DNA of 51,474 nucleotides from Escherichia phage KarlJaspers: sequence record MZ501090; one strand, 5' to 3'. The first letter of the stretch is position 1. Each line of letters begins with the position of its first letter. Positions 5,876 through 43,960 of this stretch are shown here, in pieces. Made by a program: the position numbers and the translations under genes. Under the pieces are notes generated by a model. The model did not search any database and was not told the origin of the DNA. It was given only the letters and a program-made list of their open reading frames with translations.

Positions 5876-5889
5876 TATTTGGGGTTATC

Positions 5890-20310: not shown

Positions 20311-20554
20311 TAAGACCAGACCACGAAACAGTATTCCCGCTAACGTTTATTGTTGGTGCTCCCCAGTTAACTCCAGCCCACGTCTGCGTTCCAATATATC
20401 CAGCCTTTAATGTTTTTCCTGGCGGCTGATTGTAATATGTCTTGCTTCCTGATGGTTGTGTGAATCTATCCAGGAAGAATACAGGAGTTAATAAACCAGT
20501 AACATCCCTTCCTTGTTCGTCGTAAATTGCGTAACCGTATGCCATTATTTGCAC
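20270..20554 (-). CDS. hypothetical protein (N-terminal part of split gene)
   Basis: 94 aa ORF ending YIYTFWG encoded across (TA)5 tract at 20284-20294. Confidence 0.4.
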   Translation of the reverse strand: MQIMAYGYAIYDEQGRDVTGLLTPVFFLDRFTQPSGSKTYYNQPPGKTLKAGYIGTQTWAGVNWGAPTINVSGNTVSWSGLNAGESRYIYTFWG

Positions 20555-20814
20555 TCCACATAATCAAAATTATCCTCGCTTTGCCACCTGTGAACGAAAG
20601 TTACATATTTTTGTGATGGAGCTACGCGATAGTGTTTTTCACCGAATCTGTTTTCGCGCACAGCGTTTATTTTCACAGGATAGCTATCATTTACAGGGAA
20701 TGTTTTCACCATGTATGAGCCAACGCAATCAACCTCTTTATAGCCCCCATCCATTGACGCAGAACAACCAGTCAGGGCAACGGCGGCAATCAAAACGGCT
20801 ATTAACTTTTTCAT
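20545..20814 (-). CDS. outer-membrane lipoprotein, Cor-like superinfection exclusion (putative)
   Basis: 89 aa; signal peptide with lipobox LTGC; location after tail tip gene as for cor in T1/phi80-type phages. Confidence 0.5.
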   Translation of the reverse strand: MKKLIAVLIAAVALTGCSASMDGGYKEVDCVGSYMVKTFPVNDSYPVKINAVRENRFGEKHYRVAPSQKYVTFVHRWQSEDNFDYVECK

Positions 20815-20869
20815 TTTGGTGTCTCCTTAGTTGTTGTTGGTTGCAACTATACACGATCTTGCGGTGGGC

Positions 20870-20888
20870 GTTTAGCAAAAAGTGCCAT
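20870..20888 (-). promoter_or_regulatory. degenerate copy of conserved motif upstream of cor-like gene
   Basis: GTTTAGCAAAAAGTGCCAT; minus-strand TATAGT and AAGGAG RBS follow. Confidence 0.35.
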
Positions 20889-20959
20889 TCTGTTCTTTTT
20901 GTTCTCCTGCGTTCTCAAATCTGCGGAGGCTTAAATTTAGCTCAAAATGTGAGCAACAA

Positions 20960-21130
20960 TAGAGCGATATACATACAGATAAATATATATACATACATAT
21001 AAATCAATAAGTTAGTAGTATATATATTTATATTTGTTCTTTATTGTTATCTATGTTTTGTGTGATTTTGTGTGTCTGGTGATTTTTCTGTGATTATGTA
21101 TGTGTCAGTGGTTGTGTGTGTCTATATATC
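20960..21130. repeat. AT/GT-rich non-coding island, copy 1 (homologous to 43100-43300)
   Basis: Shares about 48 bp core beginning AAATCAATAAGTTAGT plus GT-rich tracts with second island. Confidence 0.7.
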
Positions 21131-21258
21131 TATATCCGGCGCAAATTGAGGAACAAGAGAACAAAAAGACAACAAAGATATTTATCAATCACTTACATGT
21201 AAGTTTTGTTATCAAAGATGTCTAGAACGTTGTTAGAACAGAAAAAACAAAATAACTA

Positions 21259-21286
21259 TTGACTAAACGCATCAAATAGCTACAAT
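21259..21286 (+). promoter_or_regulatory. sigma70-like promoter for recombination operon
   Basis: TTGACT - 16 nt - TACAAT, 30 nt upstream of 21316 start. Confidence 0.5.
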
Positions 21287-21315
21287 GCAGACATACCAAC
21301 CAATGAGGGCAAATC

Positions 21316-22377
21316 ATGAATAAGTTTATGGCGTACACCAGCGAAGAAATGAGCAACGAGCTTTATCACAATCCAGAAGCGTGGACTGCTGATTATGTTA
21401 GCGGTTCAAGCCTGGCAGAGATTTACAGCACATGCCCGGCAGCGTGGAAGTTCAAGCCGCGTGACGACAAGAGCAAGGCGCTAGTTTTTGGTACGCAGTC
21501 GCATACCAATTTTGAAAGCAAGGAGCTTTTCGAAAAAACCTATCGCCGTGCGCCAGCGCCAGAAGACTTTAAGGATCTGATAACCAGCCAAACGGCGCTT
21601 GCTGCAAAGCTAAAATCATTTGGCCTGAAAGGTACAACAGGAAAGACTTACCCTGAACTTATAAAAATGTTGGTTGACTGCGGAGAAGACCTTAACGTCA
21701 TGTGGTTAATCGACATGATCGCAGAAAGTCAAGCCAGGGCCGATGGGGTTCAGTTAATCGAAGCTAAAGATTACGATGCGTGCGTGGCAATGCGCCAGGT
21801 TCTGGAATCAATACCGGAACATAACGCATGTATGAATAGCAAGACGGCACAACGTGAATTATCGTTATTCGGTGAAATCAACGGCGTAAAAGTCAAAGTG
21901 CGATGCGATCACGTTGACGTAACAAAGAACGTGACAGCAACTCTTATTGATGGTTACGATGAAAAAGGTCAGCCGATTTGCCGCGATATTATTTATCCAG
22001 AAGCTATTGTGATCACTGACTACAAAACAACAATGAGCGCTAATCCGGTTGAGTTTATGCGCCTGGCTTACAATCACGGCTATTATTTGAAAATGGCGTT
22101 GCAATGTGATTTATTCAGAAAAGCGTATCCAGAAGAAAAGCGACCTATAGTTGTGCGACTGTTAGCGCAAGAGAAGAAAGAGCCTTATTTGCCGTTGGCT
22201 TTTCGCATGAATAGCGAGCAATTAAAGATCGGGCGCATTCAGTACATGAGCGTGATTAACCAGTTTGCCATGTGCCAGCAGCATGACGTTTGGCCTTCGT
22301 ATTCAAACGGTGAGCCGGAGGTTTGCCTTGATACTCCTGATTGGGTGCGCCGCCAGTTTAAGCAATATCTTATTTAA
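21316..22377 (+). CDS. PD-(D/E)XK-family recombination exonuclease (putative)
   Basis: 353 aa; VITDYKTT motif; first gene of exonuclease-annealase-SSB module. Confidence 0.5.
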   Translation: MNKFMAYTSEEMSNELYHNPEAWTADYVSGSSLAEIYSTCPAAWKFKPRDDKSKALVFGTQSHTNFESKELFEKTYRRAPAPEDFKDLITSQTALAAKLKSFGLKGTTGKTYPELIKMLVDCGEDLNVMWLIDMIAESQARADGVQLIEAKDYDACVAMRQVLESIPEHNACMNSKTAQRELSLFGEINGVKVKVRCDHVDVTKNVTATLIDGYDEKGQPICRDIIYPEAIVITDYKTTMSANPVEFMRLAYNHGYYLKMALQCDLFRKAYPEEKRPIVVRLLAQEKKEPYLPLAFRMNSEQLKIGRIQYMSVINQFAMCQQHDVWPSYSNGEPEVCLDTPDWVRRQFKQYLI

Positions 22378-26625: not shown

Positions 26626-26894
26626 TCCCTAAGTTTTTGATCCGTCACAACGGTTCTGCTATTGAATAATTTCGCATCGTAATTATCATTAATGATGCGA
26701 GCGTTCACAAAATAACCATCATTTTTCTCTACAATTTCCTCTCCTTCTTCCGTTACAGATACAACAGTGTAAGTGTTCCCGATAACGTCGAGAAGAATTG
26801 CATCCTGAATGGATTCGTTTTCGTTCCATTCAATTTCTTCAAGAAAGGCAGAAAACTCTGCCTTGTCTGCAAATTTCAGTGTTAAATCTCTCAT
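26616..26894 (-). CDS. hypothetical protein (tail-fibre associated)
   Basis: 92 aa ORF coupled between two tail-fibre genes. Confidence 0.4.
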   Translation of the reverse strand: MRDLTLKFADKAEFSAFLEEIEWNENESIQDAILLDVIGNTYTVVSVTEEGEEIVEKNDGYFVNARIINDNYDAKLFNSRTVVTDQKLREWA

Positions 26895-28849
26895 TATACA
26901 ATTTCCCCCAATTGATGATCTGTTAATGCCTTATGCCAGATCCTAAAGTTTCTAATGTGTCCAAACAAATGGCGCTCTCCAGTTCCTGTTTGTCCGCCAA
27001 ACCTGATATTTTTATCTCCTGTTACGCCTATGTAATCGCAGTATGAATCAGACACTGCTATAGCATTGGTGACAACATGAAATTTGCCATCAGATTTTGC
27101 AATGCATCCAAAAGTGGATTTTTTTGCAAACACATCAGATGCCGCGCTATTAATATATGCCCCAGCAGGCGTTGATAAACTCATGTATAATTTTCCACTT
27201 CCTCTATTTATTGCCGCAATTGCTGATTGACCAGTATTTGCAGCAGCTATATCCCAAACACGAGGGGCAGAATTTGGAGCAACATCCCAACACTTACTAA
27301 CCTCAAGCAAAAAAGTAAACGGCAATTTATATAGGTTGTTTTTTGTTGGAATGCTAACAAGATCGCTAGCTCTCGTTGTTGGCATTGAAGTTATAATAAA
27401 TGACGATGCTGTATTTCCAAGTTCAATTTGCGGCGTAGCCATCGTTAACGTTGAATCAGAATAAAATGGTTCGTTGTTAATTTTATTAGTCATGTAAAAT
27501 GCACAATTAACAGTGTCAACATTTGTATTGGCTGTATATGTCGCTTGATAATACATCCATTCGCCATCCTGTTCCACTTTAGCGGTTATAAGTGAAGTGT
27601 CTCCACTTACCGATGCAACCAAAGTATCAAGATCCAAATAAGAATCAGCAGAAAATGTATCTACTCCATCAATAATTGTAGACACTCGAAGCCTGCATCT
27701 TGCTTTAGCACCTTTAACCCTACAAGAAAAGGTGAAACTTTCACCTGACACCAAAGGGAATCTATCGGCTGTAACAACTCCATGAACGGTATAACCTCCA
27801 GTAGTACCAACAATACTTTCTACAGGGGTGACTGTAGCGTAGTTAAAACCACGATCATCCGTTCCGAAAGTTTTATTTAAAGAAGAATGAATAGTCCAAG
27901 AATCTGTTTTATTTGAGTTTCTTAGATAGTTAGTTCTTTGCCCTTCGATTAAAAGACCTTCTTTTTCAAAACGAGGTTCGTCAATCTCCGCAACAGTCAA
28001 TACACCTGATTTGTTAATATAAGTTGCTGTTGAAGCGCGTGAAAATGTAACTACTTTATCTGTTGGCATAGTTATAACATCATTACCAACTGTTATTTTT
28101 TTGTAACCAGGTGCAAAGCCTGTAATCATCTCAAGAGAATCATTAAACGGTATCCACACGTCGGGCAGCGGTTGCAATAAATCTTTGTAAGGTTCTGCGG
28201 CCTGCCTTGCGTATTCCTCCGCTTGATCTCGCGCACTTTCAGCTCCTGCCTTTGCAGTGTTCGCAGCGTTACGCGCGGATTCAGCGCCAGACTTTGCTGT
28301 TTCAGCGCCAGTCTTTGCAGTGTTTGCAGCGTCGCGCGCGGATTCAGCAGCGGTCTTTGCAGTATCAGCGCCTTTCTTGCTGTTTTCTGCATTTGTTGCG
28401 CTTTTCTTCGCGTTATTCTCGCTAGTTTTAGCGGCCTTCTGGCTTGCTGCGGCCGCAGCAGCATCGCTCTTTACGTCAGCCTGTATCTGTTGAAGTTTAT
28501 CCCAATCAAATGTTTCGATGATCTCAATGAATCTGGCAAATTCAGTTTCTTTACCCTGGTAATATCGCAGTGTTTCAGCGACATCTTGCGCCAGGCCATC
28601 AACAGTTATTGAATCATGAAGCATGATCAGATAGTTTGTCTTTGCTACAACAGCGCCGCCAGTAGTAATGGCGCGAATGCTTGTGTCGCTAATAACCTCA
28701 GTGATTACAGCGGCTTGCATTGGATTTGTTAAGAAAAATATTGTTGCACCAGGGCGAATGAGTGTTAGCTGTTCGCGCCATTTTGTGCCGTATCCAGTTA
28801 TATAACCTTGCGCGTCCATTGACGCCTGTCCGGTTCTGTAAATTGCCAT
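26894..28849 (-). CDS. tail fibre protein (Ala-rich repeat shaft, lectin-like C-terminus)
   Basis: First ATG at 28849 with GGGAG RBS (track ORF starts TTG 28903); repeats AxTAKxGAESARxAANTAK; C-terminus RFGGQTG...NFRIW. Confidence 0.6.
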
Positions 28850-28906
28850 GCGTTTTCTCCCATGTTGTATGTTAATGTCAATGCAGATAATAGCATTTGA
28901 CAAGGC

Positions 28907-28947: not shown

Positions 28948-29880
28948 TTAGAGAATTGATTCAGGTTTGAAAACCTTCCTCTCTATCCCTTGCCTGTAAT
29001 TATCATTAATCGGCATCATAATTTCAAGTCCTCTTTCCTCGGCAGCAATGATCGCGTCACGGTCTGTACTCTTACAGACAACTCTCATTCTTCTGTTTCC
29101 CTTATACCTGTAAGCCACAATCTCAATGTTAGTTGCATCAAAGCAGGCCCAGACCTCTTGACCAGTTGCAAGGTGGATGTGTTGCGCATCAATCCAGTCA
29201 ACGCAAAGATAGATCGTCTTATCTGTACTTCCTGTTCTCACAATCGACCCTCGCGTGTAGTCCTTTGCGAGAAAAGACTGATTGCCGTCTTCATCAATGA
29301 AAAGCACATTGCACATTTCATCATCAATCTCATCTGAGTGTACCAGGTGACACGGTAACGCGTGAATGTATCGGCCATCTTTTACGCCGCAATCATAATG
29401 ACCATCTTCAGGCGGGTATATTCCTTCATATGTGCTTAACGGCGTGCGATCAAATTTTAGTGTTTTTGACATAACGCGCTCGCAGCATTCATGGCTTGCC
29501 TGTTTCCCAAACGAATAACCAGAATCACGAGATACTCGCTTATTTGCCTTGATCCTATAGTCCTGCGGAACTTTTCCAAGAAAACGGCCCAAAATATTGA
29601 TCACTTCGCTGTAAGGTTCTCCGGTTAGCTTCATGATCCAACCAATTCCGGTATCATTACCGCACACGTTGCAGATCGCACCGCCATCGCCTTTTTTATC
29701 GCCAAGTTTATCCGTCCATCTGAAGCGATCCTTTCCGCCGCAGTGTGGGCAAGATTGATGCTTTCCGTTAAAAACTTCATTTGGAAGACCGCAAATACTT
29801 TGTAGCGCCTCACGCCACAATCCTTGCATATATGGGAGAACATCTTCCTTTTGATAAACCATAAAGTTTTCGTTATTCAT
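28948..29880 (-). CDS. DNA primase (zinc-ribbon type, putative)
   Basis: CPHCGG...CNVCG zinc-binding motif and acidic DEIDDE segment; start ambiguous (29880 with GAGGTG RBS, or 29982). Confidence 0.55.
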
Positions 29881-29935
29881 ATACACCTCAAACAAAAAAG
29901 CCTGACAGATGATAACATCATGCCAGGCATTGTTT

Positions 29936-30409
29936 TTAGCAATTAGTGCTTTCAGGTTTATACAGGAATCCGCCAGGTTCATAATCTGACATTCTTACCA
30001 CTCGCAACATTTCACGCTTATCACATCTCTTTGTGAGCGGTTTGCCATTGGAATCAAATCGCAGGTCTGGACGACAGAATGATGCGCGATAGCCTTGACA
30101 TCCATATTTTTTGTAATCGTTATGCACCTTTTGAGCGCCAGCGGCTGAAATCATACCGCGAACGCGCCACTGATTTACAGTTTGCTGGCTAACGTTAAGA
30201 CGTTTTGCCATTGCTGACACGCTTCCGTAATACTCAATAAGGATGTCAAGTCGCGCTTTTAGTCCGGCGCGCACTTCATCTTTTAAAACATAGTATCCCG
30301 TAGGGCGCTTGCGCTTCTTCTTATCCTTTCCTCTTCGAGTTCCGTTATTGCCATTAATTGTGCGCTTGTCAATCTTGCCTGTTGATACTGCGATTCGTTG
30401 CTCTTTCAT
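29936..30409 (-). CDS. HTH DNA-binding protein (putative transcription regulator)
   Basis: 157 aa; basic N-terminus; helix-turn-helix-like SVSAMAKRLNVSQQTVNQW. Confidence 0.5.
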   Translation of the reverse strand: MKEQRIAVSTGKIDKRTINGNNGTRRGKDKKKRKRPTGYYVLKDEVRAGLKARLDILIEYYGSVSAMAKRLNVSQQTVNQWRVRGMISAAGAQKVHNDYKKYGCQGYRASFCRPDLRFDSNGKPLTKRCDKREMLRVVRMSDYEPGGFLYKPESTNC

Positions 30410-30422
30410 TATTCATTCTCCA

Positions 30423-30441
30423 ATAGCATTTTTTGTTAAAC
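30423..30441 (+). promoter_or_regulatory. conserved intergenic motif copy upstream of helicase
   Basis: ATAGCATTTTTTGTTAAAC, then TATTAT about 19 nt downstream. Confidence 0.5.
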
Positions 30442-30498
30442 GATGATTTAATGATTGTGTATTATACACGCCAAATGGCATTACTCAAAGGTTTTAGA

Positions 30499-32538
30499 AT
30501 GATTCCAAACATTGAAAAGCAAATATCAACACTTGGTGAAACGGTAATTAAATCCATTCAGGAGCGATTCACTGTTGGCGAGATTGTGCCTTACCATTAC
30601 CAGTGCGTTGCATACGCTGAGATCGCAAAGCGTATGAAAAATTATGAGCATCCATTCTTTGTTAAAGCGTCCGTATCGGCTGGCAAAACATTGATGTTTG
30701 CAATGGTTGCTCACCAGTGCCGGAAAATGGGCTTGAAAATGATGGTCCTTGCTCGCCAGGCTGAGATTGTGGATCAGGATTCTGAAGAGATAACAAATCT
30801 TGGTGTGCCGAACTCCATCTATTGTGCAGGACTGAAGACAAAAAGCGCATACTTTCCGATCGTTGTTGGTTCTGAGGGAACTGTAGTTAATGGACTGTTT
30901 AAAGCGCTTGGCGACTATGTTCCGCACGTTATCGGGATTGACGAGTGTCACCAGGTGGATTGGGAAGACCTTGCCGACGCAATAGAGAAAGACGAATCAT
31001 TTTTACAAATGACAACGAAGAAAGGCGAAAAAGTACCAAATCCAGATTATGACATAACGAGCGATAACGAATGCGAAGAGTTCCTGATTGGTGAGGATGG
31101 CTTGCCAATGGAGGGAACAGGCCGCACACAATACACTGTCATTATCATGGAAATGATGCGCCGCTGCCGGAAAACATATGGTCATGAACTGCGCATATTT
31201 GGCATGACTGGATCGGAGTTTCGCGGCGTAGTCCCGATCCTGGTAGAAGACAAAAAACAGAAAGGATTCTGGCGTGAACAGGTTACTAATATTGACACCA
31301 ACTACCTGATCAAATTCGGTTCTGTTGTGCCAACAAATTTTGGCGACGTTGGCGATCTAGGGTATGACCTTTCAGAGTTTGAGGCATCCAGTGAGGATGG
31401 AGTTGCAGACTTTGACGCTAAAACGCTTCGCAGGATGGAACAAAAAATTCATGAAGAAGCGACCATGACAAAGCGCATCATGGCGAAAGTTCACGAGATC
31501 TGTAAAAACCGCAACGGCGTACTTGTGACATGTGCAGGAGAAAGGCATTGCAAAGAGGCAGCGGCAGCGTTGCCACCTGGAACTACTTACAGGATCATTA
31601 CTGGTAAGACTGGCGACAATCAGCGCAAGGAGTGGTTGAGGGAAGCATACGAAGGGAAGGTAAAATACATCTTCCAGGTTCAGGCGCTAACTACTGGCGT
31701 TAACGTGCCGTTTTGGGATACGTCTGTTATTCTGCGTAAGATTGGATCGCTAACTTTGCTGATTCAGCTTTTAGGACGCGGAATGCGACTTCTTAAGAAA
31801 TGGCATAAGGAACAAGGCTTCAAGAAAGATGATCACCTGGTTATGGATTTTTCAGGAACGATGGACGAGTTAGGTGAGCTTTATTTTGATCCGATACTGG
31901 AACAGGCGCAACATCAGAAGCGATTCAGGAACGGTAAAGATCCGAAGCCTTGTCCTGTTTGCGGAACTCTTAATAGCTATTATGCTCGTCGTTGTATGCA
32001 CGTAGACGAAAACGGCAACAGATGCGAGTGGTTCTTTAAATTCAGGACATGTGATGATCAGATTGACCCGCGCACTAAAAAGATTATTCAGCGCGGTTGT
32101 GGAACGAAAAATGATATTGCGGCCAGGGTATGCAGACATTGCGACATGTCATTGATTGACCCTAACGAGAAGTTAAGCGGAAAGCACTACACAAAAAACG
32201 ACTGGTTTCAGGTGCAATCTTTCTCGGTTGACATGACGAAAAACCAGAAAGGGATAATATTTAATTATGAGCTTTCCGATGGCATAGATACTTTCAGGGC
32301 GAGAGAGATATTTTTCCCTGAATCTGAGAGCCAAATTTGCCGCGCAAAATGGCGAAGCGTTGCTCTTAAGCACATACCAGATCGCCGTGTTGCTGGCATG
32401 GTGGCGAGCTATCGTAATGCACGAAAAATAATGCAATATGTTAATCACATTATGCCGCCATCGCGTGTTACTCACAGAAAGACTAGCAATGGCGAAGATA
32501 ATTTATACAAGAAGGACTTTAATTATGGCAATGACTGA
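30499..32538 (+). CDS. ATP-dependent DNA helicase (SF2, DEAH-like)
   Basis: Walker A SAGKT, IGIDECHQ motif II, C-terminal Cys4 zinc ribbon; start 30499 chosen because motif overlaps track start 30433. Confidence 0.75.
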   Translation: MIPNIEKQISTLGETVIKSIQERFTVGEIVPYHYQCVAYAEIAKRMKNYEHPFFVKASVSAGKTLMFAMVAHQCRKMGLKMMVLARQAEIVDQDSEEITNLGVPNSIYCAGLKTKSAYFPIVVGSEGTVVNGLFKALGDYVPHVIGIDECHQVDWEDLADAIEKDESFLQMTTKKGEKVPNPDYDITSDNECEEFLIGEDGLPMEGTGRTQYTVIIMEMMRRCRKTYGHELRIFGMTGSEFRGVVPILVEDKKQKGFWREQVTNIDTNYLIKFGSVVPTNFGDVGDLGYDLSEFEASSEDGVADFDAKTLRRMEQKIHEEATMTKRIMAKVHEICKNRNGVLVTCAGERHCKEAAAALPPGTTYRIITGKTGDNQRKEWLREAYEGKVKYIFQVQALTTGVNVPFWDTSVILRKIGSLTLLIQLLGRGMRLLKKWHKEQGFKKDDHLVMDFSGTMDELGELYFDPILEQAQHQKRFRNGKDPKPCPVCGTLNSYYARRCMHVDENGNRCEWFFKFRTCDDQIDPRTKKIIQRGCGTKNDIAARVCRHCDMSLIDPNEKLSGKHYTKNDWFQVQSFSVDMTKNQKGIIFNYELSDGIDTFRAREIFFPESESQICRAKWRSVALKHIPDRRVAGMVASYRNARKIMQYVNHIMPPSRVTHRKTSNGEDNLYKKDFNYGND

Positions 32539-37758: not shown

Positions 37759-39342
37759 TTACCCCAGCAATGTTGGATTTACGAAAACAACGCCATTAAT
37801 CACACAAATATAATTTCTTTCCTCAAGCATCGGAAGCAGTTGCGTTTCCATGCGCTTCATTACGCCAGCCTGACCAACAAACGGCTTAACTTTTCGTGCA
37901 GCCTCATATATGGCGCGAACATTCAAGATTCCCTTATTAGCCTTTCCGTGTCGAGTGATGATCTCGATTAGTTTACCCATTTCAGCATCATCACCAGCGT
38001 AGCCAGAAGCGTTGGCGGCGCTAATGTATGTTTTGCTCAACTCGCTAAACATCAACAATGCTTCCTGAACGGTTTCAACCTCAATTTCTTTCGACTTCTG
38101 AGGGTATCCACCAGGATTAAACCAGTTGCGGATAGTGTGCAAAACTGAAGCAATCCTGATCACCTGCTTATCCATTTTGCCAAGCGCGCCGCGCAGCATT
38201 GTATGCGAATACTTTCCGCCATCGGCAAGGTGCGGTTCCATCTCCTGACGAGCCATGTTAAGAACTCGCATTGCTGATTTGCTGATCTTAAGCTGGATGT
38301 TTGATTCGCTCATTATGTTATGGATCAGCTTGAAATATTGGCTTTTCAGTTCCCCGTCAACAGGTTCATAAGTAGAATCACCGTTATCATCAACAAACTT
38401 TCTACGGCCTAAAAATGATTCCTCACGCACAAGCAAATAACGCTCACTTACACCGATACCGCGCGATCCTGCATCCATGATGGCATTGATTGTTTCATCC
38501 TGGGCAATTACCGCCATACAGCCAAGAGCTTTAAAACTCATATTGTTGTCAGCGTTTGCACGAGCTATAGAAACATGACCATGATCCCAGGCTTTTAATA
38601 CAAGTTCGCTGTTGGTTTTACGTTCGCTATTGGCATATGTCAGACCTAAAAGGCTGTTAATACTCGTTGCCTCGTCTGAAATTACAGCAAAGTTTCCCTG
38701 GCGGTTGTTGATTCTTGCAAGTCCTTCCGGCGTGGTGTCGGAGACAGGGAAAACAATGTCACACATCTTTTCCAGTTTTTCTTCCAGATCTTCTTTCTCC
38801 TGGTATAGCGATTCCATATCAGCGCCGGAACGCTCGCTTTTCATCTCTTTTGCAAGACCTGCCAACTTTGCCTGAATCTTTTTTCTTTCCTTCTTTCGCT
38901 GATCGTTAATTCTTTCCACTTCTGCAACCATTGGAGCAAGTGCCAGGCTGTTAACGGCAGACTTACCAGTTGAAGGAGGCTGGCTTGTAACAACGTACAG
39001 AGCGGTTGGTTGATCCGTTCCGTGATACTCAACCGTGAAGCGTCCAAGCATTGCAGCAGACACGCAGCCGATAAAATGCATATATGCCGATGATTCAGGG
39101 AATTGAACAGATCGAGCAATGTTGCGCGCCAACTTTCCAACAACATCAACATCATTGCCAAGAGAAATTATAGGGTAGCGATCGTTTCCGTTATTAACAT
39201 CATTAACCTCACCCCAAAAGCTGGACGATTGACGGTATCCGTTTGCCTGAATGGACACGCGCACCGGAGACAATCCTTGTGCATCAGCTAATTCGATAAT
39301 TTGTTTTGGTGTTAGTTTATTGGTTTCAAACGAAAAATTCAT
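37759..39342 (-). CDS. P-loop protein, DUF3987-like (putative replication/primase-associated)
   Basis: 527 aa; Walker A-like SQPPSTGKSA; family assignment from memory, unverified. Confidence 0.4.
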   Translation of the reverse strand: MNFSFETNKLTPKQIIELADAQGLSPVRVSIQANGYRQSSSFWGEVNDVNNGNDRYPIISLGNDVDVVGKLARNIARSVQFPESSAYMHFIGCVSAAMLGRFTVEYHGTDQPTALYVVTSQPPSTGKSAVNSLALAPMVAEVERINDQRKKERKKIQAKLAGLAKEMKSERSGADMESLYQEKEDLEEKLEKMCDIVFPVSDTTPEGLARINNRQGNFAVISDEATSINSLLGLTYANSERKTNSELVLKAWDHGHVSIARANADNNMSFKALGCMAVIAQDETINAIMDAGSRGIGVSERYLLVREESFLGRRKFVDDNGDSTYEPVDGELKSQYFKLIHNIMSESNIQLKISKSAMRVLNMARQEMEPHLADGGKYSHTMLRGALGKMDKQVIRIASVLHTIRNWFNPGGYPQKSKEIEVETVQEALLMFSELSKTYISAANASGYAGDDAEMGKLIEIITRHGKANKGILNVRAIYEAARKVKPFVGQAGVMKRMETQLLPMLEERNYICVINGVVFVNPTLLG

Positions 39343-42263: not shown

Positions 42264-42483
42264 TCAGAACATCACAGGACTCGTTAATAAATTTTGCCAT
42301 GCGCTTATCATCACCAACAGGGATTAGCGCATTACACTCGCGCTTGCTACTGAATACCGTCACTTTATGAAACGATGCGAACGGCATCGACGGGAACTCG
42401 ACTGTTTGCGTCAAGATCCGCAATCCCATCTTTTTGGCCCTTACCTGGGCCTCGGCAAGTTCAAAATCCACTTCATTAATCAT
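42238..42483 (-). CDS. hypothetical protein
   Basis: 81 aa ORF. Confidence 0.4.
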   Translation of the reverse strand: MINEVDFELAEAQVRAKKMGLRILTQTVEFPSMPFASFHKVTVFSSKRECNALIPVGDDKRMAKFINESCDVLIAVKHDQQ

Positions 42484-42752
42484 TTCTTGATCTCCTCAGC
42501 AATAAATTTCAGGACTTTGCGCAAAAACACTTCATTATTGATGGTCGCTGGCAATTCCTCTTTCACTTCTTGCGGCAGGTAAACGTTGCCATGCCAGGTC
42601 AAGCAATCGTAGTTGATACGATAAGAGCAAAGCCACTCGCAATCGTTATCCGCTTCCCAAATGCAGAGTTGCAGAACATCGCCGAAGTCTTCAACAGTCA
42701 GGTCCAGACCGTGACGCTTTGCAAAGTTGAAAGTGGTTTTGCTGATGTTCAT
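42480..42752 (-). CDS. hypothetical protein
   Basis: 90 aa ORF, first gene of leftward early operon. Confidence 0.4.
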   Translation of the reverse strand: MNISKTTFNFAKRHGLDLTVEDFGDVLQLCIWEADNDCEWLCSYRINYDCLTWHGNVYLPQEVKEELPATINNEVFLRKVLKFIAEEIKK

Positions 42753-42815
42753 TTGCTTTCTCCTGATGGGTATCTCGTTTCGATGGGATAACTATACCAG
42801 GTTATCCCGATCGTG

Positions 42816-42834
42816 CTTTAACAAAAAGTGCTAT
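42816..42834 (-). promoter_or_regulatory. conserved intergenic motif copy
   Basis: Minus strand ATAGCACTTTTTGTTAAAG, then GGGATAA...TTATCCC hairpin with TATAGT. Confidence 0.6.
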
Positions 42835-43099
42835 TTGCTGACTGGTCATTATTCCACATATTCCATTAATCAGGAATAACAGGAATAATTCATTCGCGAT
42901 CACCTGGATTGTGAGACTTTGAGTTTGATCAATTTTAATCAGTTGATTAACTTTTTGTGTGGAGGGGATAGAGAAATGCGGCCCTCTTGCATCCTTTCCG
43001 GCAATCCTGGCGCGCACATCTGTTATTTCTGTTCCCCGTGTTATCTCAAATAAGCCTCCGCACTTTTAGATAACAGAATCGGCGTTCATCAACAAAAAG

Positions 43100-43300
43100 A
43101 ACAAAATAAAATTTATATATATACCCATAAAATCAATAAGTTAGTTATATATGTATTTATATTTGTTATTTACTGTTGAGCTTGTTCTATTGGTATATGG
43201 TGGGGTGGTATTGTTTGTGGTGATATGTATGTGTGATTGTATATTTTTTAATCAATGGTGATGTGTGGTGATTTTTGTATGTATATATATGGGTATGGGG
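43100..43300. repeat. AT/GT-rich non-coding island, copy 2 (homologous to 20960-21130)
   Basis: Core AAATCAATAAGTTAGT at 43130-43145 plus GT-rich tracts (GGTGATTTTTGTATG). Confidence 0.7.
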
Positions 43301-43424
43301 CAATCCTCCGTCAACCAAGTCAACAAGGTCATTTTTAACAGAAAAACCAATGGCTTAACTGAAGCATTTTGTTATCTTTAAACACGCCATGCGCCAAAAA
43401 TTGTTATTAAAACACAAAAATACA

Positions 43425-43455
43425 TTGACATGCAGGAAGGGCAAGGCAATAATGC
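43425..43455 (+). promoter_or_regulatory. candidate promoter for rightward early operon
   Basis: TTGACA at 43425-43430; -10 assignment ambiguous (TAATGC at 19 nt). Confidence 0.3.
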
Positions 43456-43489
43456 ATTAAGTTTAAACGCAACAAAAGGAGTAGATGCC

Positions 43490-43960
43490 ATGATCGAAGA
43501 AAATATTAGCACCATGTCGCGTAGTGAGTTCTGCGATATGCTTCGCGACCTGGGCGCGGCAATTGGTAGTGGTGAGCGTAATAATGTATTCATGCCAGCG
43601 CTTTTTTTGTGCGCTAATGTGGAGAACGGCGAAGCAATTACGGCATCGTACATGCGCCAGGTTGTCAACCGCGTACCTGAAGTAAAGCAAAAAGGCGTGA
43701 TCAGCATTAAGCGAAAGGTGACTGATGAGGGTGATGGCTTTGTGTTTGCGCTCACTGAAGCCAAAAGCAAACCTCGTGTTCTGACTGGGGATGATATAGC
43801 GAAACTTGAAATCAAGTGGCGAGCAAAGTTTATTGCTCAACTACTGAAAACACAGCCGCGAATCAGTGATCTGGAAGGTGAGCGCCTGGAGGGTGCGGCA
43901 ATCGCACTTGAGCGAATGAATGAAATGCTCAACGAGATGGTAAAGGTGGGGGATGAATAA
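43490..43960 (+). CDS. hypothetical early protein
   Basis: ATG 43490 with AAGGAG RBS (track start 43430 lacks RBS); 156 aa. Confidence 0.45.
   Translation: MIEENISTMSRSEFCDMLRDLGAAIGSGERNNVFMPALFLCANVENGEAITASYMRQVVNRVPEVKQKGVISIKRKVTDEGDGFVFALTEAKSKPRVLTGDDIAKLEIKWRAKFIAQLLKTQPRISDLEGERLEGAAIALERMNEMLNEMVKVGDE

Follow-up and report, generated by a model that had tools for sequence, protein, structure and literature searches.

What is the role of the two long non-coding islands that lie 22 kb apart in the otherwise dense genome of Escherichia phage KarlJaspers? The window analyzed here (MZ501090, 51,474 nucleotides) is the complete genome of a T1-like phage of the genus Hanrivervirus, family Drexlerviridae. 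T1 belongs to the seven classical T phages, and its family is frequent in sewage and in phage-therapy collections and is also met as a laboratory contaminant. To our knowledge, neither the replication origin nor the early transcription programme of T1 has ever been mapped. No description of the paired islands and no transcript-mapping data for T1-like phages were found in the literature searched; the genome papers of T1 (2004) and Rtp (2006) may mention the islands.

The original prediction saw two homologous islands with a common core of about 48 bp and proposed that they act as replication origins, as nucleoid-protein binding and bending sites, or as shared early-promoter control regions. 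The observation itself is real, but the homology reaches further than stated, and each island has features that went unnoticed: a promoter, inverted arms and a second IHF-like site.

Homology of the two islands

The core sequence AAATCAATAAGTTAGT occurs exactly twice in the window, at 21001 (island A) and at 43130 (island B). Both copies are on the plus strand, in the same orientation as predicted. Over the core as a whole the islands agree at 43 of 51 positions. Local alignment of 20941-21140 with 43090-43300 gave a score of 58, compared with 15.6±2.6 (maximum 27) for 1000 dinucleotide shuffles and 27 for the reverse-complement control. This corresponds to z = 16.6 and bears out the claim of homology. 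The match is not confined to the core: a repeat search aligned 21001-21110 with 43130-43239 over 110 nt without gaps at 71% identity, and GGTGATTTTT is common to both islands (21078 and 43267).

Relatives of the islands were gathered by protein-anchored retrieval of flanking DNA. For island B, a search with the DUF7174 protein alone led to two loci, and a three-sequence alignment was used; an exact scan of viral contigs with the 14-mer AATCAATAAGTTAG gave, among the matches listed, mostly chance occurrences in unrelated contigs. The main alignment comprised 12 sequences, namely both islands of six genomes from five genera. In these six genomes the alignment of island A with island B spans their whole length of about 400 bp, so that the homology runs from the left arm to the promoter rather than over some 48 bp. 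The blocks follow one another from left to right as a repeat arm, a TA tract, an IHF-consensus core, a T-block of phased TGTT, a variable GT tract, a second TA tract, an inverted arm, a second IHF-like site, an A-tract unit and a rightward consensus sigma-70 promoter. In the T1 subfamily this architecture is kept in outline.

It could be argued that the similarity is just low-complexity AT content, or that the islands encode a small structured RNA. The region is indeed AT-rich, and TATATA is 46-fold enriched in the islands. However, the alignment score far exceeds that of the shuffles and the blocks keep their order over about 400 nt. As single strands the cores fold no better than shuffled sequence (z = -0.16 for island A and +1.15 for island B), the islands have no Rfam or tRNA match, and no promoter-like site reads into the core in either of them. 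We therefore give almost no credence to either proposal.

Each genome examined has exactly two such islands, at the same loci. In the stretch that runs from the right arm to the promoter, identity of island A is 57-67% with island A of other genomes and 47-54% with island B of the same genome. This indicates that the duplication predates these genera and that both copies are under constraint, and gene conversion is not able to explain the shared architecture. The core behaves differently: in the window, islands A and B are 80% identical there over 79 alignment columns, compared with 56-60% against island B of other genera.

Such patchy homogenisation would be expected if the core were a functionless AT-rich spacer between divergent units, in which gene conversion takes place now and then and which at most provides a patch of homology for module exchange. 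Mosaic breakpoints in island B (Fulano1 and A16a match up to about 43204; ESh4, vB_EcoP_06 and 2019SD1 up to about 43044) agree with this idea, as does the GT tract, whose composition is conserved between genera while its sequence is free to vary. On the other hand, the five genera have kept, in island A as well as in island B, the block order, the T-block, the CCGGCG..AAAT motifs and the arms. Outside the core, island A resembles island A of other genomes more than island B of its own genome, and dense genomes retain exactly two islands each. We consider a mere spacer improbable. A miniature transposable element with inverted arms and an AT core was rejected, as the homology runs past the arms to the promoter and the loci are the same in all relatives. 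Judged from these alignments, the islands go back to an ancient duplication of one cis-acting cassette, about 400-450 bp in length, two copies of which are present in every T1-like phage examined.

Both islands are situated at divergent junctions, as predicted, but the genome has a third one, a short junction at 30410-30499 without the cassette architecture. The non-coding gaps measure 501 bp (20815-21315) and 737 bp (42753-43489), the latter if the minus-strand ORF 42802-43017, which shows no protein-level conservation outside the genus, is counted as spurious. T1 has corresponding gaps of 527 and 700 bp, TLS of about 411 and 783 bp, and SECphi27 of 501 and 692 bp. By conserved annotation these are the largest ORF-free stretches, which was also predicted; the statement fails in a lenient six-frame ORF count, where short chance ORFs fill both islands. 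A naive ORF-free measure with a 35-aa threshold was uninformative and was discarded, AT-rich DNA being full of chance ORFs.

Anatomy of island A

Sequence analysis of island A identified the following elements.

20870 to 20889, minus strand: copy of the 21-nt family repeat, AATGGCACTTTTTGCTAAAC, matching the TLS consensus aaATAGCACnnnTTGnTAAAA; conserved in the island-A alignment
20894 to 20925: left arm, three phased TGTTC and then CTCAAATCTGCG; inverted copy of the right arm
20967 to 21000: first TA tract, in which purines and pyrimidines alternate; falls within the 60- and 100-nt windows of lowest stability
21001 to 21015, plus strand: core motif AAATCAATAAGTTAG, within which AATCAATAAGTTA is an exact IHF-consensus match
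21019 to 21051, plus strand: T-block TATATATATTTATATTTGTTCTTTATTGTTATC, its TGTT repeats spaced by about 10 nt; conservation in both islands of five genera is stronger here than in the other central blocks
21052 to 21122, plus strand: G+T-skewed tract with GTGAT repeats; G+T 0.84, the genome maximum
21123 to 21147: second TA tract and then CCGGCGCAAATT; both islands have kept TATATA..CCGGCG(T/C)AAAT in the different genera
21140 to 21169: right arm CGCAAATTGAGGAACAAGAGAACAAAAAGA, phased GAACA repeats and an A-tract; inverted repeat of 20894-20925
21182 to 21195, plus strand: second IHF-consensus site TATCAATCACTTA; centre about 104 nt upstream of the predicted transcription start
21223 to 21256, plus strand: promoter-proximal GAACA/A-tract unit, about -72 to -38; aligns with the right arm, GAACGTT..AACAGAAAAAACAA conserved
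21259 to 21286, plus strand: predicted sigma-70 promoter TTGACT-16-TACAAT of the recE-like / erf / ssb operon; homologous to TLS P51

Aligned with the right arm, the reverse complement of the left arm is identical in about 26 of 32 columns, and TTTTGTT..GTGTTC within the left arm is conserved across genera. The core of island A reads AATCAATAGTTTA or AATCAATTAGTTA in many relatives, although not in all. The cor-like operon has a leftward promoter, whose predicted upstream element, by its match to the family repeat, is 20870-20889. The promoter-proximal unit at 21223-21256 appears UP-element-like when compared with the published UP consensus.

Anatomy of island B and the adjacent pac-like zone

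Island B has the same blocks, preceded by a zone of its own.

42816 to 42836: copy of the 21-nt repeat at the left edge of the island
42865 to 42973: pac-like zone of GGAATAA, TAATCA and GATTG repeats; beside island B only and outside the shared cassette
43020 to 43047: left arm CTGTTATTTCTGTTCCCCGTGTTATCTC; paired with the left arm of island A in the alignment of 12 sequences
43070 to 43111, plus strand: unit 1, with ..AACAAAAAGAACAAAATAAAA; aligns with the island-A right arm
43112 to 43187, plus strand: first TA tract, followed by the IHF-consensus core (43130-43144) and the T-block; over 79 alignment columns, 80% identity with the island-A core
43188 to 43296, plus strand: G+T-skewed tract and second TA tract; G+T 0.82 at 43198
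43313 to 43359, plus strand: right arm CAACCAAGTCAACAAGG..AACAGAAAAACC and IHF-like site AACCAATGGCTTA, one mismatch; the site is 80 nt from the -35 hexamer
43396 to 43453, plus strand: promoter-proximal A-rich unit and predicted sigma-70 promoter TTGACA-17-AATAAT (43425-43453); homologous to TLS P01

The island B promoter faces the early right operon, the first gene of which belongs to the DUF7174 family and extends from 43490 to 43960. Transcription is predicted to begin near 43460 here and near 21293 in island A. Within unit 1, AACAAAAAGAACAAA is also present in islands A and B of TLS.

The pac-like zone raised the question of whether the islands are packaging sites or part of such sites. 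In GenBank, both the TLS and the T1 record open a short way left of the island-B core, at a pac end whose position was approximated by experiment. The TLS record begins at the zone homologous to 42865-42973, which is its deduced pac site, and its first HindIII site at 5876 fits the published pac-HindIII fragment of 5,882 bp. The T1 record also begins in this zone, annotates a repeat region at 1-2800 and has motifs in common with the window. However, the repeats at 42865-42973 lie outside the shared cassette and have no counterpart in island A, and TLS digests show a single submolar pac fragment. A packaging role for the islands is accordingly very unlikely.

Promoters, IHF-like sites and short repeats

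On its right-hand side each island ends in a near-consensus rightward sigma-70 promoter, which agrees with the consensus (TTGACA and TATAAT, spacer of 16-18 nt) at 10 of 12 positions in island A (21259-21286) and at 11 of 12 in island B (43425-43453). It is this feature that makes shared early-promoter control the best supported of the three roles originally offered. Strong promoter-like sites number one per island, fewer than in shuffled sequence. TTGAC(T/A/G)-16-TAnAnT, mostly TTGACT with TAnAAT, is present in 43 of the 44 island-A sequences scanned, the T1 group included, and most island-B sequences have TTGAC(A/G)-16/17-TAnnAT. Only three consensus sigma-70 promoters are described in TLS, P01 in island B, P51 in island A and P57 of the regulator-primase operon, the other units having the 21-nt repeat (PMC11447400).

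The IHF consensus WATCAANNNNTTR has 10 matches in the genome, compared with 4.1±1.9 expected, and four of the ten are inside the islands: 21002, 21183 and 43131 on the plus strand and 42936 on the minus strand. TA tracts lie 5′ of the matches at 21002 and 43131. The site nearer the promoter persists as AATCAnnnACTTA in a wide range of relatives and frequently deviates from the IHF consensus at one position. Its distance to the -35 hexamer in island A (24 sequences) is 76-79 nt; in island B it takes values of 46, 66-67 or 77-80 nt. These values differ by about one or two helical turns. Relative to other islands, island B of the window has a 10-nt insertion and an 11-nt deletion that together preserve this distance. 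The core site is less constant, being absent from island A of TLS, island B of SECphi27 and others. In a Keio screen with the T1-like phage LL5 only LPS genes, tolC, secB and ppiB were required and no host DNA-binding protein was recovered, so that IHF would be at most auxiliary. The predicted binding and bending sites are thus supported at the level of sequence, by the share of matches within the islands and by the helical phasing, and not by growth dependence.

Short repeats are the third component. GAACA, TTGTT and AACAAAA are enriched in the islands (P from 1e-5 to 1e-3); island A alone has six copies of GAACA where 0.68 are expected (P = 7e-5). In the arms and the T-block, GAACA/TGTTC and TGTT repeats are spaced 8-11 nt apart, and inverted and direct copies of a unit of about 30 bp, CGCAAAT..GAACA..GAACAAAAAGA, flank the core. 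The dominant repeat is GAACA, GTAAC or GTAAT depending on the lineage; it is coherent within an island and present in 5-13 copies per island. Such lineage-specific change suggests that the repeats are bound by a phage-encoded protein.

The reading that we prefer, while holding it with reserve, is that the islands are duplicated immediate-early promoter control cassettes. Launching early gene expression would be the most likely function of the cassette, which may also be the best candidate for the replication origin of the family. Host RNA polymerase would use both island promoters immediately after injection, that of island A driving recE-erf-ssb and that of island B the early operon of small genes. 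The bend site would bring upstream A-tract units to the alpha subunits of the polymerase, as at lambda pL, and the TA/GT core between the diverging transcription units would absorb negative supercoils. A phage-encoded protein recognising the lineage-specific repeats would then occupy the cassette, resulting in early shut-off or take-over, and the same protein-bound melted core could additionally start replication.

Several observations do not fit easily with control of promoters only. Consensus promoters rarely require 250-300 bp of extra upstream DNA, and the third early promoter fits in a 90-bp gap without arms or an AT core. Transcription offers no obvious reason why an upstream region that is not transcribed should have a strand-specific G+T skew. 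The IHF-consensus core is not found in all lineages, and the LL5 screen also speaks against a need for a host bending protein. Finally, the left arm of island B is about 185 bp away from the leftward promoter and hence is no proximal element of that promoter.

Duplex stability and the possibility of a replication origin

The islands are the two least stable duplex windows of the genome at 60, 100 and 200 nt (z 4.7-5.3, next best 3.2). The same was true of all five complete genomes compared, which represent four genera (z 4.2-5.8, with no more than 3.6 elsewhere). Two statements about composition were also upheld. The G/T-skewed tracts have the two highest G+T fractions of the genome in 80-nt windows of the plus strand (0.84 at 21042 and 0.82 at 43198; mean 0.50, sd 0.07), and purine-pyrimidine alternation, claimed for the AT tract, reaches its genome maximum at 20964.

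These properties could be explained if the cores were replication origins of Drexlerviridae, either as an independent pair or as one origin with a cis-acting helper in the manner of ori/crr. The TA tract, T-block and GT tract would form the unwinding element, and an initiator or helicase encoded by the phage would bind the flanking AACA/TGTT-type repeats as its iterons. The complex would be given its shape by IHF-type bends while divergent early transcription drives negative supercoils into the core, where the primase (28948-29982, minus strand) and the DUF3987 helicase (37759-39342, minus strand) would load. Precedents exist in oriL/oriR of SPP1 and in the activation of oriC by outward transcription.

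Beyond low stability, this proposal accounts for repeats about 9-11 nt apart, direct and inverted, that flank the core and vary between lineages as iterons do. It also accounts for a G+T skew that is conserved when sequence is not, for cores that are unfolded as single strands, and for an upstream region far in excess of what a consensus promoter needs and absent from the third early promoter. Homology exists between the phage primase and the primase domain of P4 alpha (E = 8e-14). Replication of P4 relies on two distant iteron sets, ori and crr, whose unit is TGTTCACC; GTGAACA is present in the arms of TLS and SECphi27, and an exact TGTTCACC is found in island B of SECphi27. The 2024 re-annotation of TLS reported no origin-like repeats anywhere in that genome and did not locate an origin for the family (PMC11447400).

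Other data argue against it. The cassette is always joined to a promoter with constrained spacing, and the RecE, Erf and SSB homologues may mean that T1-like phages rely largely on recombination-driven replication. Pfam and PHROGs scans of the early and replication proteins revealed no replication initiator. A structure model of the DUF7174 protein was uninformative for an initiator role. The 157-aa protein encoded at 29936-30409 on the minus strand has a Cro-type helix-turn-helix and is 55-78% identical across subfamilies; with four genomes only, its recognition helix could not be matched up with the repeat variants. No counterpart of the origin-binding domain of P4 alpha was detectable in this Cro-like protein or in the DUF3987 helicase, and a profile of the latter had no match in PDB. 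Homology to the P4 origin was rejected: when P4 ori and crr were compared with 19 islands, most z values stayed below 2 and those of the window were close to 0, with only short iteron-like words in common. Among classical bacterial signals, the DnaA box TTATCCACA is absent genome-wide and TTWTNCACA is absent from the islands, which also have no Chi site and no GATC cluster (one GATC in about 1 kb of island DNA in total, and 273 in the genome). No DNA similar to the islands was found in a plasmid collection. On balance an origin is the main alternative to promoter control; it is possible, and we would not call it probable.

Precise coordinates and a block anatomy are now given for two conserved cis-acting cassettes, which combine two of the three host-type early promoters with the most meltable DNA of the genome and candidate protein-binding repeat arrays. 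The start site of replication and the set-up and shut-off of early expression become directly testable as a result. Should the cassettes be only upstream regions of promoters, they would represent a useful annotation and ordinary biology.

Comparison with known systems

Within the family, a parallel is offered by the 21-nt repeat aaATAGCACnnnTTGnTAAAA (PMC11447400), another family-wide and unexplained cis element, one copy of which marks the left edge of each island. It differs from the cassette in being present about 20 times per genome before non-early units, whereas the cassette is present twice and with consensus sigma-70 promoters.

Like the islands, ori and crr of P4 are two distant sets of short repeats beside A/T-rich DNA, and the P4 unit TGTTCACC resembles the GTGAACA/TGTTC of several T1-like islands. 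In the window, however, the repeats are GAGAACA/GTTAT and not TGTTCACC, there is no overall similarity, and only the alpha primase domain is held in common. SPP1 is also a pac-type siphovirus that depends on the host polymerase and has its own helicase, and its oriL and oriR are two distant copies of initiator repeats next to an AT-rich stretch. Its initiator is G38P and one of its origins lies inside the initiator gene, whereas both T1-like islands are intergenic and joined to promoters.

For transcription, the upstream activating sequence of ilvPG offers an IHF site in a destabilised AT-rich region upstream of a sigma-70 promoter, and supercoil-induced destabilisation is relayed there by IHF. 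The ilvPG site is at about -92, while the T1-like core is centred about 285-320 nt upstream with the second IHF-like site in between. OL-PL and OR-PR of lambda are likewise two homologous control regions, each driving an early operon and having repeated protein-binding sites. They measure about 80-100 bp, diverge around a repressor gene and have known repressors, whereas the T1-like cassettes measure about 400 bp, point in the same direction, lie 22 kb apart and belong to a virulent phage.

A parallel to our preferred reading, promoter control cassettes, is lambda pL, which reportedly has an IHF site and a distant UP-like element upstream (work of Giladi, Oppenheim and colleagues). Like pL, the predicted island promoters would be strong early promoters for host RNA polymerase, with a putative IHF-type site about 90-110 nt upstream and A/T-rich, A-tract DNA beyond it, and the face of the helix would matter in them too. 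The T1-like upstream region is 3-4 times longer than that of pL, contains the least stable DNA of the genome, has phased lineage-specific repeats and exists in two paralogous copies.

Location of the two islands

The window represents a complete T1-like coliphage genome (51,474 bp; Drexlerviridae, Tempevirinae, Hanrivervirus), with which vB_EcoD_Fulano1 is collinear. Island A is matched by phiE31-2 at 99.6% identity and by pSf-1, vojen, damhaus, Henu8 and others at 92-96%. About 20 GenBank MG0656xx records titled 'Campylobacter phage' (host Campylobacter jejuni; database matches H7-H11, H21-H33 and H59-H61) are 93-95% identical to the islands and have T1-like sizes of 47-50 kb; they look like mis-assigned or contaminant T1-like coliphages.

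Islands and neighbouring genes
20545-20814 (-): cor-like superinfection-exclusion lipoprotein gene, left neighbour of island A
20815-21315: island A, between the cor-like and recE-like genes
21316-22377 (+): recE-like exonuclease VIII gene, right neighbour of island A
42480-42752 (-): last of the small early genes that are left neighbours of island B
43490 (real start, ATG): DUF7174 gene, right neighbour of island B

The start of the DUF7174 gene was assigned to ATG 43490 because ATG 43430 sits within the promoter. This gene (phrog_4841, 43490-43960) is the first past the island-B promoter and is conserved from T1 (ST77) to TLS (gp01). In the AlphaFold model of its product two long helices follow an N-terminal half arranged helix-strand-helix-helix-strand-strand, which in the model appears winged-helix-like; no significant structural match to the model was found. 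Elsewhere, a 63-nt in-frame tandem duplication (83% identity, 28237-28362) lies within ORF 26894-28903 (-, 669 aa), whose position corresponds to the tail-fibre gene in related genomes.

The islands are copies of one cassette

The original prediction described a shared core of roughly 48 bp in the same orientation. The 16-mer AAATCAATAAGTTAGT is indeed present exactly twice in the window, both times in one orientation, and 43 of 51 core positions are identical. Local alignment of the islands scored 58, compared with 15.6±2.6 in 1000 dinucleotide shuffles (z = 16.6) and 27 in the reverse-complement control. The similarity was confirmed but not its extent, since the islands are homologous over the whole ~400 nt. 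The noted G/T skew and purine-pyrimidine alternation were likewise found: G+T of the + strand reaches 0.84 and 0.82 in the islands, the genome's two maxima (0.50±0.07 overall), and the strongest alternation in the genome is at 20964, in island A. At all window sizes tried, duplex stability is lowest in the two islands (z 4.7-5.3; next 3.2). Fulano1, T1, TLS and SECphi27 each have exactly two outlying windows (z 4.2-5.8), which are homologous to island A and island B.

For comparison, 44 island-A loci (~20 clusters below 90% identity) were fetched via the flanking recE-like gene and 16 island-B loci via the DUF7174 gene, and the complete T1, TLS and SECphi27 records were added. Islands A and B of six genomes from five genera can be aligned along their full length, ~400 nt, with a common block order.

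Blocks of the cassette
1: A 20894-20925, B 43020-43047; left arm with phased TGTTC repeats (12-island alignment)
2: both islands; CCGGCG/CCGCA..AAAT motif
3: both islands; AACAAAAAGAACAAA unit
4: A 20967-21000, B 43112-43128; first TA tract
5: A 21001-21015, B 43130-43144; IHF-consensus core (sequence match)
6: A 21019-21051, B 43145-43187; T-block TATATnTATTTGTT..TTGTT
7: A 21052-21122, B 43188-43277; G+T-skewed tract, composition kept, sequence variable
8: both islands; second TA tract, then CCGGCG..AAAT
9: A 21140-21169, B 43313-43348; right arm GAGGAACAAGAGAACAAAAAGA
10: A 21182-21195, B 43345-43359; second IHF-like site AATCAnnnACTTA (sequence match)
11: both islands; TTTTGTTATC
12: A 21223-21256, B 43396-43424; GAACA/A-tract unit, ending at about -38
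13: A 21259-21286, B 43425-43453; predicted sigma-70 promoter

The two arms of island A make up an inverted repeat of 32 bp (~26 positions identical). In the T1 subfamily the blocks are arranged likewise, but the repeat word is another. The phage specifies a Dam-type methylase, and GATC occurs 273 times in the window (~1 per 188 bp); yet the islands, ~1 kb in all, contain just one site, at 20855.

Promoters and IHF-like sites

A role in early-promoter control, also proposed originally, is favoured by predicted rightward near-consensus sites, TTGACT-16-TACAAT in island A and TTGACA-17-AATAAT in island B. Each island has exactly one strong promoter-like site, below the count in shuffled sequence, and of 44 island-A sequences scanned, 43 contain TTGAC(T/A/G)-16-TAnAnT. 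For TLS, the 2024 re-annotation recognizes just three consensus sigma-70 promoters genome-wide, P01, P51 and P57, the last driving the operon of a Cro-like regulator and primase (PMC11447400). P01 and P51 are homologues of the island-B and island-A promoters.

The IHF-like site nearer the promoter begins 76-79 nt 5' of the -35 hexamer in 24 sequences of island A and 46, 66-67 or 77-80 nt 5' of it in island B; these distances are about one or two turns of the helix apart. Compared with other islands, island B of the window has an insertion of 10 nt and a deletion of 11 nt, mutually offsetting. Such spacing would be the signature of a site fixed to one helix face relative to the promoter. WATCAANNNNTTR has 10 matches in the genome (4.1±1.9 expected), four within the islands. 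The consensus matches expected for IHF binding and bending exist; an essential role for IHF was rejected, as LPS genes, tolC, secB and ppiB were all that a Keio screen with the TLS-like phage LL5 yielded, with no DNA-binding protein among them.

A third divergent junction (30410-30499) holds two back-to-back promoters in 90 bp, with neither arms nor AT core: on the + strand a 21-nt-repeat promoter for an SNF2-type helicase, on the - strand sigma-70 TTGAGT-16-TATAAT, which serves the operon of the Cro-like regulator and primase. The remaining TLS transcription units carry this repeat, aaATAGCACnnnTTGnTAAAA, whose function was left open (PMC11447400). The window has ~18 copies.

Copies of the 21-nt repeat
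+ orientation: 2085, 30422, 32939, 33980, 44215, 44678, 45667, 46652, 47954, 49299
Reverse orientation: 6344, 10105, 20870, 37229, 39397, 40073, 41940, 42817

Many copies are followed by a short G+C hairpin and then, ~20-22 nt downstream, by a -10-like hexamer with TG or G in front of it (TGGCATAAT and TGGTATAGT are examples), with no good -35 hexamer. In its layout this recalls 'middle' promoters that depend on an activator, the T4 MotA box type among them. Copies 6344 and 10105 are oriented against late genes.

Overall, these sequence data speak directly for duplicated immediate-early promoter control cassettes, a reading with a nearly even chance of being right. No description of paired cassettes was found in the literature searched, which did not extend to the first genome papers on T1 and Rtp.

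Short repeats and their putative binder

Both islands are enriched for GAACA, TTGTT and AACAAAA (P 1e-5 to 4e-2), and the short repeats follow each other at intervals of 8-11 nt. Which word dominates is set by lineage and coherent inside an island.

Dominant words (L, retrieved loci)
GAACA: window, TLS, L167
GAAAC: L135, L184
GTAAC: T1 island A, L151, L152
TTAAC and GTAAT: T1 island B
GTAAT, 13 copies: L164

We infer a phage-encoded binder, because a host factor should keep the word constant among same-host phages. Of the proteins scanned, just one is annotated as DNA-binding, a 157-aa Cro-type helix-turn-helix protein (29936-30409, -), 55-78% identical across subfamilies and predicted to be expressed from the third early promoter. 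A search of its own promoter region found none of the island repeats.

Age of the duplication

From right arm to promoter, island A is 57-67% identical to island A of other genomes and 47-54% to its own island B. The duplication is therefore older than these genera, and both copies have been retained. In the core, identity between the two copies of the window is 80% (79 columns), versus 56-60% to island B of other genera, which points to patchy homogenisation in the window lineage; this explains the sharp 48-bp core originally perceived.

Mosaic breakpoints between related phages fall within island B (42840-43490 against matches H67-H80), where matches in several genomes stop at ~43204 (T-block end) or ~43044 (left arm). 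Each half of the cassette, left or right, therefore moves along with the operon on its own side.

Packaging site and structured RNA

The islands were rejected as a pac site: the pac-like zone, 42865-42973, lies beyond the shared cassette and is missing from island A. It is directly left of island B, ~8 kb upstream of the small terminase gene, and its repeats (GGAATAA-N-GGAATAAT, TAATCA, GATTG, ..GAGGGGAT) are common to T1, TLS and SECphi27. This zone is likely the pac region, because the T1 and TLS GenBank records begin there, at the experimentally approximated pac end. Each record opens at the mapped end of the first headful, a little to the left of the island-B core, and the first HindIII site of TLS, at 5876, agrees with the published 5,882-bp pac fragment. 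Two ORFs inside islands, annotated or callable, are probably spurious: a 71-aa ORF across the zone (42802-43017, -), with no protein-level conservation beyond the genus, and Fulano1 gp26 (locus L001, 21202-21327), a 41-aa 'putative exodeoxyribonuclease VIII' within island A. Structured RNA was also rejected, Rfam, tRNA search and folding giving no support.

Possible replication origins

The cassette reading leaves unexplained 250-300 bp of highly meltable, strand-skewed, repeat-flanked upstream DNA, puzzling because the third early promoter manages without it. Replication origins, as first proposed, would account for this DNA and are compatible with promoter cassettes; we regard them as the somewhat less likely of the two readings. 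An iteron-type origin would be expected to look like this: the genome's least stable DNA bordered by phased repeats in both orientations, with predicted IHF-type bend sites and a strand-asymmetric tract free of self-folding in both islands, between diverging transcription units. The TLS paper (PMC11447400) places no origin for T1-like phages. However, no direct test placed the islands among such origins: they lack DnaA boxes, Chi sites and GATC clusters, Pfam and PHROGs scans revealed no initiator family, and the plasmid collection searched contained no similar DNA. P4 ori and crr differ from the T1-like islands in having no significant overall similarity to them, and no counterpart of the P4 alpha origin-binding domain was detected. 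The likeness to P4 lies in two far-apart iteron sets (unit TGTTCACC) and in the primase domain of alpha, to which the window primase is homologous (E = 8e-14); GTGAACA occurs in the TLS and SECphi27 arms, and exact TGTTCACC in SECphi27 island B.
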